The notes beneath the pieces were generated by a model that was not told the origin of the DNA, did no database searches, and was given only the letters and a program-made list of their open reading frames with translations. A program made the translations under genes and the position numbers. A DNA stretch of 32,000 nucleotides from Candidatus Methylomirabilis oxygeniifera (GTDB lineage: Bacteria; Methylomirabilota; Methylomirabilia; Methylomirabilales; Methylomirabilaceae): contig FP565575.1 of assembly GCA_000091165.1 (NCBI GenBank), forward strand, positions 990,001 through 1,022,000, in the 5' to 3' direction. The stretch's first letter is position 1, and each line of letters begins with the position of its first letter. Shown here piece by piece: positions 3,075 through 9,998 of the stretch.

Positions 3075-4133
3075 ATGCAATGGTCGATATACATCCTCGT
3101 AATCAGCTTGGTCCTGATCGAGCAGGCCTGGGGGACTCAGCCCGTGCCGATTCGGCCCGGTGAAGCCGACCAGGCGTATCAACGTGGCGTACGGCTGCAG
3201 CAGGAGGGACGGCTGGCGGAGGCGATTGAGGCATTCCGATCCACCCTTCGGCTCGCGCCCACGCGGGCCTTCGTCTATGTGAAGCTGAAGGAGGCCTATG
3301 GTCGCGGACGGACCGGCGATCAGGTCGGTACAGAGCTTAAGGCGAAGGCCGATCAGGACGGCGCCGATTTCGTTTCCTGGAATCTGCTTGGTGTTCTGTA
3401 TGCGAAGCAAGGGCGCTGGGCCGAGGCCATAGCGGCACTTGAACGGACGGTACAGATCCAGCCTGCAGATGTCGATGCATGGACGAATCTCGGATGGCTT
3501 TCATCGGAATTAAAGCAGAGTCAGAAGGCGCGTGAAGCGTTCCGTCGAGCCCTTGCGCTCGATTCTGCCTATGGGCGCGCTCATGCCGGCCTGGCAGGTC
3601 TCTATGCCGAGACGGAAGGCGAGTATGACAAGGCGATAGAGGAGTACCGGCTCGCATTAGCGGCTGAGCCGGGGAATTCGGACTATCTGTACGATATGGG
3701 GTGGGTGTACTACCGGAAGGGGATGACCGACGACGCGCTGAAGATCTTGACAGAGGCGTCAACCTTGAGTCCGGACGATCCGGCGGGACGGACGAAGATC
3801 GGGTGGGCGCGGCTTCGGCGGAAGGAGTATCAGGTTGCAATTGAAGAGTTTGAGCGGGCATTGCGAGCGCAGCCGGAGTACACCTTCGCTCGGTTCGGGT
3901 TGGCGCGGGCGCTGCAGGCCGAAGGAAACGACGACGCGGCCGTTGTGGAGTATAAGCGGGCTTGGCGGGAGGCCAATAACGATGTCTACCTCTTGTATCT
4001 TGTCAGACTCTATCTGCAACGCAACCTCTGGGCTGTATTCCTGGCTGTGATATTCACGGCAGGTCTGACGCTCGTATGGCTCATACGGCGCAGACGCCTT
4101 CCGCAGGATCCTCAGGCTACGTTCGGAAAGTGA
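3075..4133 (+). CDS. TPR-repeat protein with N-terminal signal/anchor and C-terminal TM helix
   Basis: 352-aa ORF with repeated 34-residue A..Y/W..LG..Y...G....A...Y..AL...P units (e.g. WTNLGWLSSELKQSQKAREAFRRALALDSAY). The N-terminus is hydrophobic (IYILVISLVLIEQAWG) and the C-terminus is LWAVFLAVIFTAGLTLVWLIRRRR. Confidence 0.8.
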   Translation: MQWSIYILVISLVLIEQAWGTQPVPIRPGEADQAYQRGVRLQQEGRLAEAIEAFRSTLRLAPTRAFVYVKLKEAYGRGRTGDQVGTELKAKADQDGADFVSWNLLGVLYAKQGRWAEAIAALERTVQIQPADVDAWTNLGWLSSELKQSQKAREAFRRALALDSAYGRAHAGLAGLYAETEGEYDKAIEEYRLALAAEPGNSDYLYDMGWVYYRKGMTDDALKILTEASTLSPDDPAGRTKIGWARLRRKEYQVAIEEFERALRAQPEYTFARFGLARALQAEGNDDAAVVEYKRAWREANNDVYLLYLVRLYLQRNLWAVFLAVIFTAGLTLVWLIRRRRLPQDPQATFGK

Positions 4134-4228
4134 TGATGGCGGACATTTAGGCCTCGCAATCTCCGGTGCCGAACATGCTTACGCTGCGCCCCATCTGCAT
4201 CAATAAGAGATTTCTCGTCGTCGCGCAT

Positions 4229-4236
4229 TTTGTTCT
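4229..4236. repeat. Left copy of the 8-bp target-site duplication TTTGTTCT
   Basis: The identical 8-mer sits immediately outside both inverted repeats (4229-4236 and 6220-6227) in direct orientation. Confidence 0.8.
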
Positions 4237-4260
4237 CGGAATTGTTCACTTGACAAAGCA
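4237..4260 (+). repeat. IS left terminal inverted repeat (cargo side)
   Basis: See the mobile-element entry; it contains a TTGACA hexamer at 4250-4255. Confidence 0.8.
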
Positions 4261-4278
4261 TAAGGTGATCTCTATGAT
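4250..4278 (+). promoter_or_regulatory. Sigma-70-like promoter inside the left IR, reading into the cargo gene
   Basis: TTGACA (4250-4255), a 17-nt spacer, then TATGAT (4273-4278). The cargo ATG at 4287 is only 8 nt past the -10, implying a leaderless or near-leaderless mRNA. Confidence 0.55.
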
Positions 4279-4286
4279 TCCAATCT

Positions 4287-5048
4287 ATGGGCAACTTACA
4301 GGCTTCTATAGGGTCCGCTCGATTGTTATTGTTGGGAATTATCAAGCGAGCTTGGTCTTGGCTACTTCTCGCATTTGTGACCTTTCCAGGCGCGTATGAC
4401 CGATACAAATGGATTTTTCCGCACGATATGCAGGTAGCGTCAATGCCATTGTGGGTGTCTCTCGGATTGTTGGGAATTGGGCTGATTTACGCAATGTTCA
4501 TGACCTACCATGAATTGAATATGCAGGCAAAAACCATGCAACACCAACTTGATCCGACCCTTGATATTCTGTGTGGCAACGATCCTCCGCTTGAGGAGCG
4601 AGAAATCTTAGCGGGCAGTCAAGATGTGCAATGGCGTTATTTTCGTATTGGCATAAAGAATATAGGAAGCACAACAGTCGAGGATGTTGTCGTCCGTTTA
4701 GAGGAGTTATATGACTTAGCATCCGACCCTCCCGCAAAGAGCCCAGTTCCTCCCGTGATATTGAGACAGATGAATGATAATCCATTCAATGGACAATATC
4801 AGCAAAGTTTCAGATTGCACCCCGGACAGATTCAGTACATTGACGTTGCGTGGAAGCCAGAGGCTGCTGTGACGATTGACCCCGATCAAATTAGACTGGG
4901 GTATGCTCAAATGTCACCTTCCTTAATTTCATGCCGACGCCATGAACTCTTAATACAGGCCGCTGGCAGAAACGTTCCAGCAAAAAGTCGGTGGTTTTTT
5001 GTAGATGTGAATCAAGATGGGCAACTTATATTCGGGCCTAAGAATTAG
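4287..5048 (+). CDS. Orphan membrane protein (two predicted TM helices plus a ~170-aa soluble domain of unknown family); IS cargo
   Basis: 253-aa ORF. Hydrophobic segments are ARLLLLGIIKRAWSWLLLAFVTF and MPLWVSLGLLGIGLIYAMFMTY. The C-terminal part looks beta-rich (WRYFRIGIKNIGSTTVEDVVVRLEEL...QIQYIDVAW...RWFFVDVNQDGQLIF). I recognise no motif. Spot counts of 60-nt rows give ~42-47% G+C, against ~60% in the adjacent transposase gene. Confidence 0.6.
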   Translation: MGNLQASIGSARLLLLGIIKRAWSWLLLAFVTFPGAYDRYKWIFPHDMQVASMPLWVSLGLLGIGLIYAMFMTYHELNMQAKTMQHQLDPTLDILCGNDPPLEEREILAGSQDVQWRYFRIGIKNIGSTTVEDVVVRLEELYDLASDPPAKSPVPPVILRQMNDNPFNGQYQQSFRLHPGQIQYIDVAWKPEAAVTIDPDQIRLGYAQMSPSLISCRRHELLIQAAGRNVPAKSRWFFVDVNQDGQLIFGPKN

Positions 5049-5056
5049 GACTGATC

Positions 5057-5209
5057 GTGAAGCAACCACTTAAAGCTGAGCAAGACAAGTCCGTCCGCCT
5101 CAAACCCCTCTCGCTCTACCCGCTCACGCCAGAGCAAGCTCTGTCAGCCTTCATGCAGGTCAAGCCGAAGAAGGGTAGGAAGACAGTGAAGCTAAGGGCA
5201 ACTCAATGA
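5057..5209 (+). CDS. Possible 50-aa basic micro-ORF (GTG start) between cargo gene and transposase gene
   Basis: My own translation: VKQPLKAEQDKSVRLKPLSLYPLTPEQALSAFMQVKPKKGRKTVKLRATQ*. It starts 9 nt after the cargo stop and overlaps the convergent transposase stop by 7 nt. There is no clear RBS and it is below the track's length cutoff. Confidence 0.2.
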   Translation: MKQPLKAEQDKSVRLKPLSLYPLTPEQALSAFMQVKPKKGRKTVKLRATQ

Positions 5210-6141
5210 AACACCAACCGCTTGCCGATGCTGCCGCGAATGGCCTCAACAGTGCGCTCACCGTCCGTGACGGTTCGGTGATCCCATCGGAAGCCGAACT
5301 CGTCGCAGTAGCGGTGCAGATGCGTCTTGGAGAGATGGTGAAACGTCCCATGCACGCCGCGCTTGAACAGGGCGAAGAACGATTCAGCCGTATTGACATG
5401 CACGTCGCCCCGGGCATACTCGCCCTTGGAGTGTGTGACCGTCTGATGTCCACCAGTAAAGCTATGGCCGATCCCATAGTAGACCGAGGATTCATCGGTC
5501 ATCAGTTCGGCATCATGCCGCACCCGCTCTCGGATAGCGGTCTTGACCGTCTTCGCCGTGACCCGTTCGACCTGTCGGGCATGGAGCCGTCCGCCACCGC
5601 CCCGCTCAACCAGTGCGACAACCGGCACTTTGCGCTCAGACGCCTTACCGCGCTTGCCCAATCGCGTCTTGCCGCCGACAAAGGTTTCGTCCACCTCGAC
5701 GATACCCTTCAAGAGCTTTCGCATCGGCATTTCGCGCATAGCAAAGCGAATCCGATGGGCCAAGTGCCACGCCGACTTGTACGATTTCAACCCAAGGGTG
5801 CGCTGCAACTGAAGCGCCGAGACGCCCTTTTTGCTGGCGCACATCATATGGAACGCCTGAACCCACTGCCGAAGTGTAATGTGCGACCGCTCCATGACGG
5901 TCCCGACCGTGACCGTAAACTGCTGACGGCACCCATTGCATTGCAGCAGCCCATCCCTGACCTTCAGGGACTTCGCCGTAATTCGTGTTGCTTTGCGACT
6001 CTCGCAATGCGGGCAGGTCGGGCCATTCGGCCAGCGGACACGCTCCAAAAGCATCCGCGCCTCGTCTTCTGTCAGCCGAGCGACATCAATCGCGGCCATG
6101 TCTTTCAGATCGGTAAATGTTGGTGGCATGTAGCGCATCAT
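5203..6141 (-). CDS. IS1595-family (ISXO2-like) DDE transposase with N-terminal zinc ribbon
   Basis: 312 aa. The zinc ribbon is CPHCES...LQCNGCRQQFTVTVGTVMERSHITLRQW. It is followed by VEVDETFVGGK...VVALVERGG....MTDESSVYYGI...H.TV.HS.GEYARGDVHVNTAESFFALFKRG..GT.HH.S..HL.RY..EF.FR, the layout of ISXO2-like transposases. Confidence 0.9.
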   Translation of the reverse strand: MMRYMPPTFTDLKDMAAIDVARLTEDEARMLLERVRWPNGPTCPHCESRKATRITAKSLKVRDGLLQCNGCRQQFTVTVGTVMERSHITLRQWVQAFHMMCASKKGVSALQLQRTLGLKSYKSAWHLAHRIRFAMREMPMRKLLKGIVEVDETFVGGKTRLGKRGKASERKVPVVALVERGGGGRLHARQVERVTAKTVKTAIRERVRHDAELMTDESSVYYGIGHSFTGGHQTVTHSKGEYARGDVHVNTAESFFALFKRGVHGTFHHLSKTHLHRYCDEFGFRWDHRTVTDGERTVEAIRGSIGKRLVFH

Positions 6142-6177
6142 CAGCCCCCTTGTTTTAGTGTTATGTGATCTACGTAA

Positions 6178-6206
6178 ATATTATAACAAGGAGTGTGCTT
6201 TGTCAA
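6178..6206 (-). promoter_or_regulatory. Sigma-70-like promoter inside the right IR, reading into the transposase gene
   Basis: On the minus strand: TTGACA (reverse complement of 6201-6206), a 17-nt spacer, then TAATAT (reverse complement of 6178-6183). An AAGGGGG RBS follows before the ATG at 6141. Confidence 0.55.
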
Positions 6207-6219
6207 GTACATATTTCCG
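6196..6219 (-). repeat. IS right terminal inverted repeat (transposase side)
   Basis: See the mobile-element entry. Confidence 0.8.
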
Positions 6220-6227
6220 TTTGTTCT
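6220..6227. repeat. Right copy of the 8-bp target-site duplication TTTGTTCT
   Basis: Identical to 4229-4236. Its last T is the first base of a TTGACA hexamer (6227-6232) facing nrdJ. Confidence 0.8.
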
Positions 6228-6233
6228 TGACAA

Positions 6234-6281
6234 GCACTATATATCGTAGTAATTAAAATATCACTATACTACATATAGTAG
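6234..6281 (+). promoter_or_regulatory. Tandem NrdR-box-like palindromes upstream of nrdJ
   Basis: GCACTATATATCGTAG (6234-6249) and ATACTACATATAGTAG (6266-6281) each match about 12/16 of the NrdR-box consensus acaCwAtATaTwGtgt as I recall it. They are separated by 16 bp (32 bp centre to centre), just downstream of TTGACA at 6227-6232. Confidence 0.55.
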
Positions 6282-6407
6282 CTATGTGGTCGCGGAGACC
6301 GATTCGCCGGGTTAGCGATAGACGGCGTATTTACGTATATGGCATCGAATAGTTGGAATCTCAGCAAATCCGAGTTGCGTCAATTGTCCCAGGTAAAGGA
6401 GGACACC

Positions 6408-9400
6408 ATGCTTGGCAAGGCGAGCGGGTCAACGTTCCACGGAATAGAAAAGGGAGTAGAGGCGACCCAGGCGGAAGGATCCAGACCGACGAAGAATGGA
6501 CAGTGGAGTGAATCAGCCATCCGCGTCCTCAAAGAGCGTTACCTGATAAGGGACGCGACAGGTGTCAAGGAGACGCCGGAGGAGATGTGCTGGCGGGTCG
6601 CGGTGGCCATCGCCAAGGCTGAAGGGCAGTGGGGTAGAAGTGAGGCGGAAGCTCTCCAGGTTGCGGAGTCGTTTTACGATGTCATGGTTGACGGGAAGTT
6701 CCTTCCTAACTCTCCCACGATGATGAATGCCGGCAAAGAGAACGGGATGCAGTATTCGGCCTGTTTTGTGCTTCCCGTTGAGGATTCTATGGAGGGGATC
6801 TTTGAGGCGGTCAAAAGGGCGGCGATCATCCATCAGTCCGGCGGCGGGACCGGCTTTGCGTTCTCGCGCCTCAGGCCGAAGGATACCCTGGTGAAGTCAA
6901 CGGGCGGTAAGGCGAGCGGTCCCATCAGCTTCCTTCGGGTCTTTAATGCCGCCACCGAAGCCGTCAAGCAAGGGGGTGCCAGGCGAGGCGCCAACATGGG
7001 GATTCTCAAGGTGGATCACCCTGACATCCTGGAGTTCATCGACTGTAAGCTGGACGGCGGGATCACCAACTTCAATATCTCGGTGGCTACCACCGACACG
7101 TTCATGGACGCGCTGGCGAAGGACGAGACCTACGAATTGATCGATCCGCACACCAAGCTCGTCACCCGCCATCTTCCGGCTCGCGAGGTCTTTCAACGGA
7201 TGGTCCAGGCGGCCTGGCGGACCGGTGATCCGGGAATGATCTTCATCGATCGCATCAACGCGAGCCCGTCCAATCCGATTCCCCAGGATGAGCTGATCGA
7301 GGCCACGAACCCCTGCGTGCCTGGGGATACGTGGATTATGACCGATGTCGGTCCACGCCAAGTCCGGGATCTTCTTGGTAAGCCGTTTCGCGCTATCGTG
7401 GATGGGACCGGACATGCGAGCGGACTCGATGGCTTTTTCAAAACTGGCACACGCCCCTTGGTACGCCTTCGGACCGTTGAGGGCTATTCGTTGCGTCTCA
7501 CGGCGGACCACCGGGTCCGGAGGGTGACTAGGCTGACCCGCTATGCGTCTGTGACGGAGTGGACAGAAGCTGGGCAACTCCGCCCTGGCGATCGAGTGCT
7601 CCTCCATGATCACCGGGAGCTGACCGGATGGGGGGGAGCCTATACAGAAGGCGAGGGGTATCTCGTTGGTCTGTTAGTCGGGGACGGTACTCTGAAGAGC
7701 GACAAGGCGGTCCTCTCGGTGTGGTGTCCGGAAGTCGTCGCTGTCGCAAACGGACCGTCCGAGATTGGTGAGTCAGGAACCTGGGCCGTGATGCAGACTG
7801 CATGGAAGTACGCAGAATCTCTTCCTCATCGGTCGGATTTCAGGGGGTGGCTGCCCGTTCCGGGCCGGACCGAATTTCGTCTGTCGCTGGCCTATCTAAA
7901 GAAACTCGCAGGCGAAATGGGAATGGCGCCTGGACGGAAGGACATTACGCCTATAATGGAGCAGGCCTCTTCAGCATTCTATCAGGGATTCCTTCGAGGT
8001 CTGTTTGATGCCGATGGATCCGTCCAGGGATCGCAGAAAAAGGGAGTCAGTATCCGCTTGTCCCAAAGTGACCGAGAACGGTTGCTGGCCACCCAGCGCA
8101 TGTTGTTGCGCCTGGGCATCGTTTCCACGCTGTATGAGGGCCGCCGTCCGTCACAGGTTCGCCTGCTCCCCGACCAGCGAGGAGGCCAGCGAGGGTACGC
8201 CACGGCCGAACAGCACGAGCTTGTCATCTCGGGAGATAATCTCCTGCGCTTTGCCGAGCGTGTTGGCTTTTCTGACAGTGACAAGGCCCTCAGACTGCGG
8301 GCGTTGTGCTCAGCTTACAGGCGAACGGTGAACCGGGAGCGATTCACAGCCCGAGTGGTTTCTGTTACAGACGCGGGGACAGAAGATGTTTATGATGTGC
8401 AGGTCCCTGGGATTCATGCCTTCGATGCTAATGGCCTTTACGCCCATAATTGCGGTGAACAGCCGCTTGGACCCAATGACGCCTGCAATCTGGGCTCGAT
8501 CAATCTGGCGAGATTTTATCTTCCCTCGATTCCGGCGGATGCCAGGGTGACGGAGCGAATCGATTGGGTTGGCCTGGAGCAGGTGGTGCGGACGGCAGTC
8601 CGCTTCCTGGACGACGTGATCGACGTGAACCCCTATCCGCTCCAGGACATTACCGAGGAGGTTCGAAACAACCGGCGGATCGGCCTCGGGGTTATGGGCT
8701 GGGCCGATCTGCTGCTTGAGCTTGGCGTTCCCTACGACAGCGACGAGGCGGTGACGCTGGGTAATGAGATCATGGGATTCATTCGGCGAATCGGCCATGA
8801 CGCTTCCGAGAAGCTGGCAGAGGCGCGAGGGCCGTTTCCGCGTTGGTCGCGGAGCATTTACAAGGGCGGGAAACCGATTCGTAATTCCACCGTTACGACG
8901 ATTGCGCCCACCGGGACGATCAGCATCATTGTGGGTTGCTCTTCCGGGATCGAGCCGATCTTCGCCGTCGCGTTCAGCCACATCGTAGGAGACCGGCATC
9001 TGACCTTCGTGAATCCGATCTTCGAGGAGGTGGCGAAGCGGCGCGGCTTCTACAGCGAAGAGCTGATGCGGCGGGTGGCCGAGCGGGGGACGGTTCGCGG
9101 GCTTGAAGGCGTGCCGGAAGACGTTCAACGGGTCTTCGTCACGGCCCACGAGATCGAGCCTGCCCGGCACGTTAAAATGCAGGCAGCCTTCCAGAAGCAG
9201 ACCGATAATGGCGTCTCCAAGACGATCAATCTGCCGAACTCGGCGACGCCGGAGGATATCGCGAAGGCCTATATGATGGCATATGAGCTTGGATGTCTCG
9301 GGATCACGGTATTTCGCGATGGCTGTAAGGGCACCCAGGTCTTGCATCTCGGCACCGGCGCCAAGCCTGCCTTGAGCAACGTCGAGGAGCCCGCGCCGAG

Positions 9401-9998
9401 CTTGGCCGAAGAGCCTGCCGTAGGCGATGCCGAAGTGTCGGCAAGGCAGGGGGCGCCGCAAGCGATCCCAATCGTTTTGAAGACAGGCCTGGAGGCCGCG
9501 CTCAAGGTCAAGCCGAGGCCGCGGACCATGAAGGGCGTCACGTATAGGGCGGAGACGCCGCTTGGCACTGCCTTCGTTACCGTCAACCAGAATGGCGAAG
9601 GGGAGCCGTTTGAGGTCTTCGCCAGCGTCGGGAAGGCTGGGAGCGATACCTCTGCGGTGTCCGAGGCGATCGGTCGACTCATCTCGATGGTCCTCAGGCT
9701 GCCGTCACCAATGTCGCCCAGGGAGCGGGTCGGGCAGATCGTGAACCAACTGTCCGGCATCGGCGGCCGGCGACAGATGGGGTTCGGCAAGGATCGGGTC
9801 CGATCGCTGCCGGATGCTATCGCCCAGGTCCTGGCCGAGCATATCGGCCTCACCGAGCCCGGCGTTCAAGAGATGCAGGCAGCTCTTGGCAAGACGACCC
9901 AGAAAGCAGGCGACATGTGCCCCGACTGTGGCTCGGCAACCCTCGTCTACGAAGAGGGCTGTCAAAAGTGCTACTCCTGCGGGTTTAGTGAATGCTAG
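6408..9998 (+). CDS. nrdJ: Class II (adenosylcobalamin-dependent) ribonucleotide reductase NrdJ, intein-containing precursor, with TSCPD-like domain and C-terminal zinc finger
   Basis: Recognisable segments are VLKERYL..., PNSPTMMNAG, ACFVLPVEDSMEGIF, SGGGTGFAFSRLRP, GPISFLRVFN and RRGANMGIL. EATNP|C...HN|CGEQPL is the split catalytic motif. Further on come TTIAPTGTISII, VSKTINLP, a TSCPD-like block (GTAFVTVN..GEPFEVFASVGKAGSDTSAVSEAIGRLISMVLR) and the terminal CPDCGS...CQKCYSCGFSEC. AAGGAGG lies 7 nt before the ATG at 6408; the track start at 6339 has no RBS. Confidence 0.9.
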   Translation: MLGKASGSTFHGIEKGVEATQAEGSRPTKNGQWSESAIRVLKERYLIRDATGVKETPEEMCWRVAVAIAKAEGQWGRSEAEALQVAESFYDVMVDGKFLPNSPTMMNAGKENGMQYSACFVLPVEDSMEGIFEAVKRAAIIHQSGGGTGFAFSRLRPKDTLVKSTGGKASGPISFLRVFNAATEAVKQGGARRGANMGILKVDHPDILEFIDCKLDGGITNFNISVATTDTFMDALAKDETYELIDPHTKLVTRHLPAREVFQRMVQAAWRTGDPGMIFIDRINASPSNPIPQDELIEATNPCVPGDTWIMTDVGPRQVRDLLGKPFRAIVDGTGHASGLDGFFKTGTRPLVRLRTVEGYSLRLTADHRVRRVTRLTRYASVTEWTEAGQLRPGDRVLLHDHRELTGWGGAYTEGEGYLVGLLVGDGTLKSDKAVLSVWCPEVVAVANGPSEIGESGTWAVMQTAWKYAESLPHRSDFRGWLPVPGRTEFRLSLAYLKKLAGEMGMAPGRKDITPIMEQASSAFYQGFLRGLFDADGSVQGSQKKGVSIRLSQSDRERLLATQRMLLRLGIVSTLYEGRRPSQVRLLPDQRGGQRGYATAEQHELVISGDNLLRFAERVGFSDSDKALRLRALCSAYRRTVNRERFTARVVSVTDAGTEDVYDVQVPGIHAFDANGLYAHNCGEQPLGPNDACNLGSINLARFYLPSIPADARVTERIDWVGLEQVVRTAVRFLDDVIDVNPYPLQDITEEVRNNRRIGLGVMGWADLLLELGVPYDSDEAVTLGNEIMGFIRRIGHDASEKLAEARGPFPRWSRSIYKGGKPIRNSTVTTIAPTGTISIIVGCSSGIEPIFAVAFSHIVGDRHLTFVNPIFEEVAKRRGFYSEELMRRVAERGTVRGLEGVPEDVQRVFVTAHEIEPARHVKMQAAFQKQTDNGVSKTINLPNSATPEDIAKAYMMAYELGCLGITVFRDGCKGTQVLHLGTGAKPALSNVEEPAPSLAEEPAVGDAEVSARQGAPQAIPIVLKTGLEAALKVKPRPRTMKGVTYRAETPLGTAFVTVNQNGEGEPFEVFASVGKAGSDTSAVSEAIGRLISMVLRLPSPMSPRERVGQIVNQLSGIGGRRQMGFGKDRVRSLPDAIAQVLAEHIGLTEPGVQEMQAALGKTTQKAGDMCPDCGSATLVYEEGCQKCYSCGFSEC
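7314..8450 (+). mobile_element. 379-aa intein with LAGLIDADG homing-endonuclease domain, inserted before the catalytic Cys of nrdJ
   Basis: The intein starts with Cys (CVPGDTWIMTDVG, block A). Block B TxxH is present (LRLTADHRV). Two LAGLIDADG motifs are present (YLVGLLVGDGTL and FLRGLFDADGSV). Blocks F/G read VYDVQVPGIHAFDANGLYAHN, followed by the +1 Cys of CGEQPL. Removing 7314-8450 restores ATNPCGEQPL in frame. Confidence 0.9.

Follow-up and report, generated by a model that had tools for sequence, protein, structure and literature searches.

Among the insertion sequences (IS) of the IS1595 family, passenger genes are carried by the subgroups ISNha5, ISNwi1+ and ISPna2+, and ISNha5 elements span about 3.4-7.9 kb. 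Members of the family usually produce 8-bp target duplications and encode a single transposase gene with an N-terminal zinc finger, and this N-terminal zinc ribbon is absent only in the IS1016 group (PMC8101967). The term "transporter IS" (tIS) was defined in the family-founding paper (Siguier, Gagnevin & Chandler 2009, as cited in PMC3129680, PMC11891212 and PMC9330008), and the passengers of ISNha5 are transcription regulators (PMC11891212). Here we describe a 1,983-bp unit of Candidatus Methylomirabilis oxyfera, located at 4237-6219 of a 32,000-nucleotide stretch of contig FP565575.1 (the window; all positions without a handle refer to it), which is very probably a structurally intact tIS of the IS1595 family. 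It adds a member to a known kind of element and does not define a new one, and it shares with the described tIS a single DDE transposase with an N-terminal zinc ribbon, short repeats, 8-bp duplications and enclosed passengers. It is shorter than ISNha5, and its passengers, a predicted two-helix membrane/β-sandwich protein of 253 amino acids (aa) and a 50-aa protein, differ from the transcription regulators of that subgroup. Our literature search found no paper linking IS1595 with Methylomirabilis.

The unit is bounded by 24-bp terminal inverted repeats that are identical at 20/24 positions and share a 13/13 inner core ACTTGACAAAGCA, and both repeat arms are directly abutted by a perfect 8-bp duplication (Table 1); short terminal inverted repeats combined with an 8-bp target duplication are what is expected of an IS1595 member. 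An earlier reading made from the letters of this DNA (the sequence-only reading) had named these repeats, their core and the 8-mer, and direct reading of 3900-6600 bore out every string and position. In a repeat search the pair was the longest inverted repeat within 3500-7000. A degenerate terminus pattern (up to 3 mismatches) matched only twice in the 32-kb window, at the two ends of the element, and not at all in 100 shuffles; no third terminus-like site was found inside the element with this pattern. Analytically, an inverted repeat of at least 20/24 bracketing the transposase gene is expected by chance at 7e-4, and at 1e-8 once identical flanking 8-mers are added to the repeat. An Rfam scan of 3800-6700 gave no match at E<=1.

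The boundaries were further defined by an unoccupied site. The element is flanked by a TPR gene and by nrdJ, the gene for a class II ribonucleotide reductase, and the empty site reconstructed by its removal, GCGCATTTTGTTCTTGACAAGCACTATAT, which the sequence-only reading had proposed to look for upstream of nrdJ, occurs verbatim in the 50-kb metagenome contig UBJH01000382.1 (L018). Positions 1-664 of this contig align to 3574-4236 with 93.8% identity and positions 657-1531 align to 6220-7094 with 96.5% identity, the two alignments overlapping by exactly one TTTGTTCT, the signature of an 8-bp target duplication. The comparison also shows that the entire 1,983 bp missing from L018, both passenger open reading frames (ORFs) included, arrived as one unit. 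The earlier reading had considered that the 8-mer might occur at both positions in a genome without the element; it stands on both sides here and only once in the IS-free contig. The same reading called the insertion recent, which holds only in the sense that the insertion is younger than the split from a lineage with 94-96% identical flanks. The unit entered by DDE transposition, through an 8-bp staggered cut in the AT-rich 8-mer.

Related elements end at the same places. The one in L008 (85.5% DNA identity) aligns to exactly 4237-6219 of the window, its left flank being unrelated, and those in L009 and L010 (70% identical) cover the same span with both passenger ORFs present; the similarity of L008 and L009 to the window stops exactly at the repeat tips. 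The ends of the relatives thus include 4237-5200, a segment that the sequence-only reading had allowed might lie outside the element, and its placing of cargo between the repeats is upheld. Both passenger ORFs adjoin the transposase gene in L008, L009, L010 and L017, in other genomic contexts. With passengers that lie within the repeats and by this comparison move with the element, the unit is a tIS, provided that the passengers are, as we assume, unrelated to transposition.

Table 1. Features of the IS1595-family element and its target duplication (window positions).
Feature	Position	Strand	Evidence
Left target-site duplication copy TTTGTTCT	4229-4236	.	Direct reading; once in L018 empty site, 657-664
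Passenger-side terminal inverted repeat CGGAATTGTTCACTTGACAAAGCA	4237-4260	+	Homology to L008 begins exactly at 4237
Promoter-like site toward 253-aa ORF, TTGACA-17-TATGAT, 11/12 match	4250-4278	+	Consensus scan; -35 inside repeat
Passenger ORF, 253 aa, predicted two-helix membrane hairpin and β-sandwich, unannotated family	4287-5048	+	Homologs, AlphaFold2 model, dN/dS
Small passenger ORF, 50 aa, GTG start, conserved core RLKPLSLYPLTPEQALSAFMQVKPKK	5057-5209	+	ORF and core conserved in relatives
IS1595-family transposase, 312 aa, CxxC...CxxC zinc ribbon and DDE domain (D151, D216, E253, K260)	5203-6141	-	Pfam, NCBIfam, alignment
Promoter-like site for transposase, TTGACA-17-TAATAT, 10/12 match	6178-6206	-	Consensus scan; -35 inside repeat
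Transposase-side terminal inverted repeat, reverse complement CGGAAATATGTACTTGACAAAGCA	6196-6219	-	Homology to L008 stops exactly at 6219
Right target-site duplication copy TTTGTTCT	6220-6227	.	Direct reading; L018 empty site

The minus-strand gene had been read as an ISXO2-like/IS1595 transposase, and both the DDE domain and the N-terminal zinc ribbon were found: the protein matches PF12762 (DDE_Tnp_IS1595; E 2.4e-40, 138.5 bits against a cut-off of 27), PF12760 (Zn_ribbon_IS1595; E 3.8e-15, residues 24-74) and NCBIfam NF033547 (208 bits against a cut-off of 75). Across an alignment of the 23 closest relatives, the catalytic D151, D216 and E253, the following K260, and the zinc ligands C43, H45, C46, C68 and C71 are invariant, and a ratio of non-synonymous to synonymous divergence (dN/dS) of 0.05-0.06 indicates strong purifying selection. 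As to the subgroup, the ends CGGAATT/CGGAAAT and the signature D..D..E(x6)K (E253-x6-K260) are compatible with what we take to be the definitions of ISNha5 and ISNwi1. The tip CGGAATT presumably fits an ISNha5-type end CGGnnTT, and (G)GGAATTAT / GGGAATTAT an end ggnnatTAT that we assume to be of the ISNwi1 type; we assign no subgroup or name. The plasmid collection held only transposases less than 48% identical and generically annotated, of no help for the subgroup. A 320-aa ORF (5206-6168, plus strand) runs antisense over the whole transposase gene and is called as a gene in the public contig L007; it is without support as a gene and in all likelihood arises as a side effect of the GC-rich coding sequence on the other strand.

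Across the M. oxyfera assemblies and read sets examined, one locus only carries the exact transposase, 100% identical in all, and the element appears to be single-copy in this genome; the 32-kb window holds neither a second copy nor a solo end. Two contigs of about 1.95 kb (L006, L007) were considered as extra copies and rejected, as both extend into the left flank. This invariance, together with the 4/24 positions at which the repeats differ, is what would be seen if the element were structurally complete but no longer mobile, a fixed single copy kept for its passengers or for an effect on nrdJ expression. We consider this possible, though the less likely state of affairs: the transposase is full-length with all catalytic and zinc residues under a dN/dS of about 0.05, the duplication is perfect, the site is empty in the lineage with closely similar flanks, and relatives are found in 2-4 copies per genome (L029-L032, L063/L064, L044/L045).

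A genome collection was searched with the alignment of the clade, yielding 79 loci, 71 of them usable, from Planctomycetota, Desulfobacterota, NC10, Acidobacteriota, Spirochaetota and other phyla. With the consensus terminus CGGAATTATGCACTTGACAAAGC as anchor, a search to either side of the transposase gene delimited 46 of the 71, which share the terminus (C/G)GGAATTAT..ACTTGACAAA and range from 1,611 to 5,630 bp. The duplication is a perfect 8 bp in 45 of the 46 and has a single mismatch in the other, so that the sequence-only reading was right to regard 8 bp as the norm of the family, in agreement with PMC8101967. The 45 duplicated 8-mers are strikingly AT-rich, at a mean of 17% GC against 50% in their flanks, A prevailing in the first half and T in the second; TTTGTTCT, at 25% GC against 58% in its flanks, conforms to this.

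None of the 46 delimited relatives is a bare IS (about 1.05 kb); all carry passengers: 15 have them downstream of the transposase gene, 18 upstream of it and co-directional, and 13 to either side. Passengers recognised by Pfam comprise three HSDR_N + N6_Mtase + Eco57I fusions, a P63C protein, an ImmA/IrrE peptidase, an NYN protein and DUF6338. The fusions, of the Eco57I type, 843-1,028 aa long and restriction-modification-like, are the sole passengers of L041, L048 and L051, each with a perfect 8-bp duplication. In elements with upstream passengers (L015 1802-3600, L016, L029-L032), a second copy of the repeat with a degenerate tip (such as CTTAATTTTTTACTTGACAAAGCA or TTAAATTATCCACTTGACAAACC) stands right before the transposase gene. 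This inner copy has the look of a former end, with its promoter, of a shorter ancestor, which suggests that passengers may have been captured by recruiting a new outer end. The resulting picture of the clade, with 46 delimited elements, strict 8-bp duplication, AT-rich targets, no bare members and two gene layouts, is useful to IS curators and unsurprising, the lack of a bare IS being a modestly interesting extra.

The smaller of the two passengers in the window is a 50-aa ORF whose last 7 nucleotides overlap the transposase stop region in convergent orientation. It has nine homologs, all unnamed, and no PADLOC match; its core RLKPLSL(Y/H)PLTPEQALSAFMQVKPKK is kept in L008, L009, L015, L017, L035 and L110, and a dN/dS of 0.25 against L017 indicates purifying selection. 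A related element of 2,402 bp occupies a different site, with the duplication AGGAAAAA, in a Methylomirabilis-like genome (GCA_975303745.1; L110 4379-6780) that has the same TPR and Mrr_cat neighbours as the window. It keeps the 50-aa ORF (84% nucleotide identity), and its repeat-proximal slot holds an unrelated membrane protein of 190 aa, so that the cargo is modular. The motif of the small ORF also occurs in the passenger regions of L072 and L074, its position and orientation varying between elements.

Such a distribution could also be expected if the extra ORFs, or at least the 50-aa one, were not passengers but an accessory or regulator of transposition, such as an inhibitor or a target-selection or immunity factor. 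In its favour one can count the lack of bare IS among the 46, the conservation of the 50-aa core where the larger passenger differs (L110, L035, L015), the motif in L072 and L074, and the convergent overlap with the transposase stop. We nevertheless find this improbable. Most delimited relatives are without a detectable copy of either ORF and carry unrelated genes instead (the restriction-modification-like methylase fusions, P63C, ImmA/IrrE, NYN and DUF6338), distant members of the 253-aa family are found in chromosomal contexts without a transposase, and the motif of the small ORF keeps neither position nor orientation from one element to another. We therefore continue to treat both ORFs as passengers.

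The larger passenger, of 253 aa, has no match in Pfam, NCBIfam or PADLOC; one homolog has a marginal PADLOC match to SduA (E 0.009). A word-indexed search returned only six homologs of the 253-aa ORF, and all five non-identical close ones adjoin an IS1595-type transposase, in at least 4 genomic contexts. With a full profile search the family grew to at least 150 cluster representatives at E<=1e-3, mostly of 200-280 aa, and none of 57 members tested contained a Pfam domain. Its more distant members lie in chromosomal contexts with no adjoining transposase, so the family is not intrinsically an IS gene, and one branch of it was captured by this IS lineage. The ORF is under purifying selection (dN/dS 0.225 against L008).

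An AlphaFold2 model built from a 57-sequence alignment reached a predicted local distance difference test score (pLDDT) of 88.6 and a predicted template modelling score (pTM) of 0.77, superseding an earlier, poor model from 6 sequences (pLDDT 61). Its two long helices, at residues 2-32 and 55-88, are predicted to pair as a membrane hairpin, which leads into a β-sandwich. The same order of two transmembrane helices and then a β-sandwich is the plan of Kir/KirBac channels, which supply more than 40 of the top Foldseek matches in the PDB (E 1.5e-5 to 1e-3). That said, the template modelling (TM) scores are only 0.21-0.30 with a root-mean-square deviation above 10 Å, the 22-residue loop 33-54 (FPGAYDRYKWIFPHDMQVASMP) is without pore helix, TxGYG filter, GYG or GFG, and no Pfam family is matched at the sequence level; the resemblance is one of architecture only and gives no evidence of membership. 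Viral structural matches of the model are uncharacterised membrane proteins. The family, unannotated and with a confidently predicted structure, may merit tests for a function at the membrane or in defence.

The repeat-proximal slot of the clade is often occupied by small membrane proteins whose N-terminal part contains one to three transmembrane helices. Those of the Planctomycetota elements were considered as one family with the 253-aa cargo, a grouping we rejected: only that of L042 aligns into the β-domain, the others match the membrane hairpin only, and the profile-profile probability of 41% is weak, so that the link is tentative. Also rejected was the idea that the cargo family rides on several IS families, as suggested by P0129 (gene at L099 4001-4708; contigs L099-L102), a 31%-identical homolog of the 253-aa passenger. 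P0129 is convergent to a 273-aa DDE transposase which is not of the IS1595 type (PF13610 at 30 bits, a weak IS1 match, an N-terminal helix-turn-helix); the two genes lie immediately downstream of a tRNA gene, and a search for inverted repeats bounding them found none. Another distant member, P0136 (251 aa; L106-L109), always follows a 147-aa ORF with downstream neighbours that vary by contig, and the two may form a mobile two-gene cassette with no transposase nearby.

The two halves of the element differ in divergence and composition. Between the window and L008, synonymous divergence is 0.245 in the 253-aa passenger ORF and 0.88 in the transposase gene, non-synonymous divergence being similar (0.055 and 0.051), and GC content is about 44-48% in the passenger half versus 57-64% in the transposase half. 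The synonymous divergence and the GC gap hint that the two halves may have had different histories, for example through module exchange. The GC gap could also be turned into a case for separate origins, with a bare IS of about 1.05 kb inserted beside a resident host gene, the left repeat and 8-mer coincidental and 4237-5200 not mobile, but this deserves practically no credence, being refuted by the L008 boundaries and by the L018 site that lacks the passenger ORFs along with the rest, and at odds with the complete unit common to L008 and L009, whose similarity ends at the repeat tips, with the chance expectation of about 1e-8 for repeat plus duplication, and with the lack of a third terminus-like site.

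We now turn to expression. In IS1, IS10, IS30 and IS911, the transposase promoter lies partly within the terminal repeat, which allows autoregulation by transposase binding. The window element is alike in that a putative -35 inside the terminal repeat and a -10 just inside it read into the transposase gene, and it differs in that its other repeat also has a promoter-like site, for the passengers, so that both gene sets would share the same operator. Inward promoters in both repeats had been proposed by the sequence-only reading, and consensus scoring and comparative conservation support them: among 8 promoter-like sites found in 4100-6400 (1.9 expected), the two embedded in the repeats are the best. 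On the passenger side, L008 and L009 keep the TATGAT -10 even though their spacers have changed. On the transposase side, a TAnnnT hexamer follows TTGACA at 16-17 nucleotides in nearly all relatives, with no conservation of the spacer sequence.

Over the 92 ends of the 46 delimited elements, a -10 at 16-18 nucleotides was present at 38 of the 61 ends with an inward-facing ORF versus 5 of the 31 without, an odds ratio of 8.6 (Fisher p = 2.4e-5) under a test that treats related elements as independent and relies on mechanical ORF calls. TTGACA-like hexamers persist at ends without a gene, which fits a hexamer that belongs first of all to the site recognised by the transposase and gains promoter function once a -10 adjoins. 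Taken together, the data support repeats that embed putative promoters, and the tracking of such promoters with inward-facing genes across the clade is another modestly interesting extra.

From these observations a working scheme can be drawn. The conserved inner repeat ACTTGACAAAGCA would be the recognition site of the transposase, its TTGACA doubling as a -35, and each end, with a -10 placed 17 nucleotides further in, would drive the first inward-facing gene. Transposase bound at the ends could then repress its own gene and the passengers alike. The transposase gene on the minus strand and the two passenger genes on the plus strand are convergent between the repeats, and no terminator-like site was predicted in 4100-6400; because no terminator is predicted between the convergent genes, passenger transcripts would probably run antisense through the transposase gene and so dampen transposition. 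As for the passengers, our best guess, held with low confidence, is a membrane-acting function of the conflict or defence type, or one otherwise beneficial to the host, that would aid persistence of the element.

Apart from the limits of the end statistic, several points speak against this overall interpretation. The promoter scan uses a sigma-70-type consensus, which may not be that of the NC10 phylum. The -10 at 4273-4278 ends only 8 nucleotides before the ATG at 4287, so that the mRNA would be leaderless or nearly so, unless the start lies downstream. The single M. oxyfera copy, identical in all assemblies, is no demonstration of current mobility, and the function proposed for the passengers comes with no PADLOC, Pfam or NCBIfam match and with fold-match TM-scores below 0.4.

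A more ambitious proposal would take the clade, all 46 delimited members of which carry passengers, as an obligate cargo shuttle whose repeat supplies a transposase-repressible promoter to any adjoining gene, as opposed to an IS lineage with occasional cargo, and the window element as a self-mobilising membrane conflict module made of a channel-like effector and a 50-aa partner. Here the 253-aa protein would be an oligomeric, channel-like membrane effector of Kir-like architecture acting in phage defence, exclusion or addiction, and the 50-aa protein its regulator or antidote. We regard this as speculative and rather unlikely; if true, the element would be a minimal self-mobilising conflict module.

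The insertion site is of interest in its own right. The strong preference of the clade for AT-rich targets accounts for the position of the element in a promoter region of a GC-rich genome. Here the end of the element is 8 bp upstream of a TTGACA hexamer (6227-6232), a putative nrdJ -35 whose first base is the last T of the right TTTGTTCT copy. The insertion is well documented, recent in the sense given above, and in the regulatory region of an essential gene, in a host that is not genetically tractable. That the occupied site upstream of nrdJ is cleanly matched by an empty counterpart is a modestly interesting extra, as lineages with and without the IS in public data make possible a direct comparison of the effect of the element on nrdJ expression. 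Just downstream of the TTGACA, AT-rich palindromes (6227-6285) resemble what we take to be NrdR boxes, and the arms ACTATA...TATAGT read ACCATA...TATGGT in the IS-free L018, a paired change that keeps the palindrome. According to precomputed annotation, nrdJ itself (6339-9998) contains an intein with a LAGLIDADG homing-endonuclease domain (Pfam Intein_splicing, LAGLIDADG_3), a second selfish element at this locus, unrelated to the IS.

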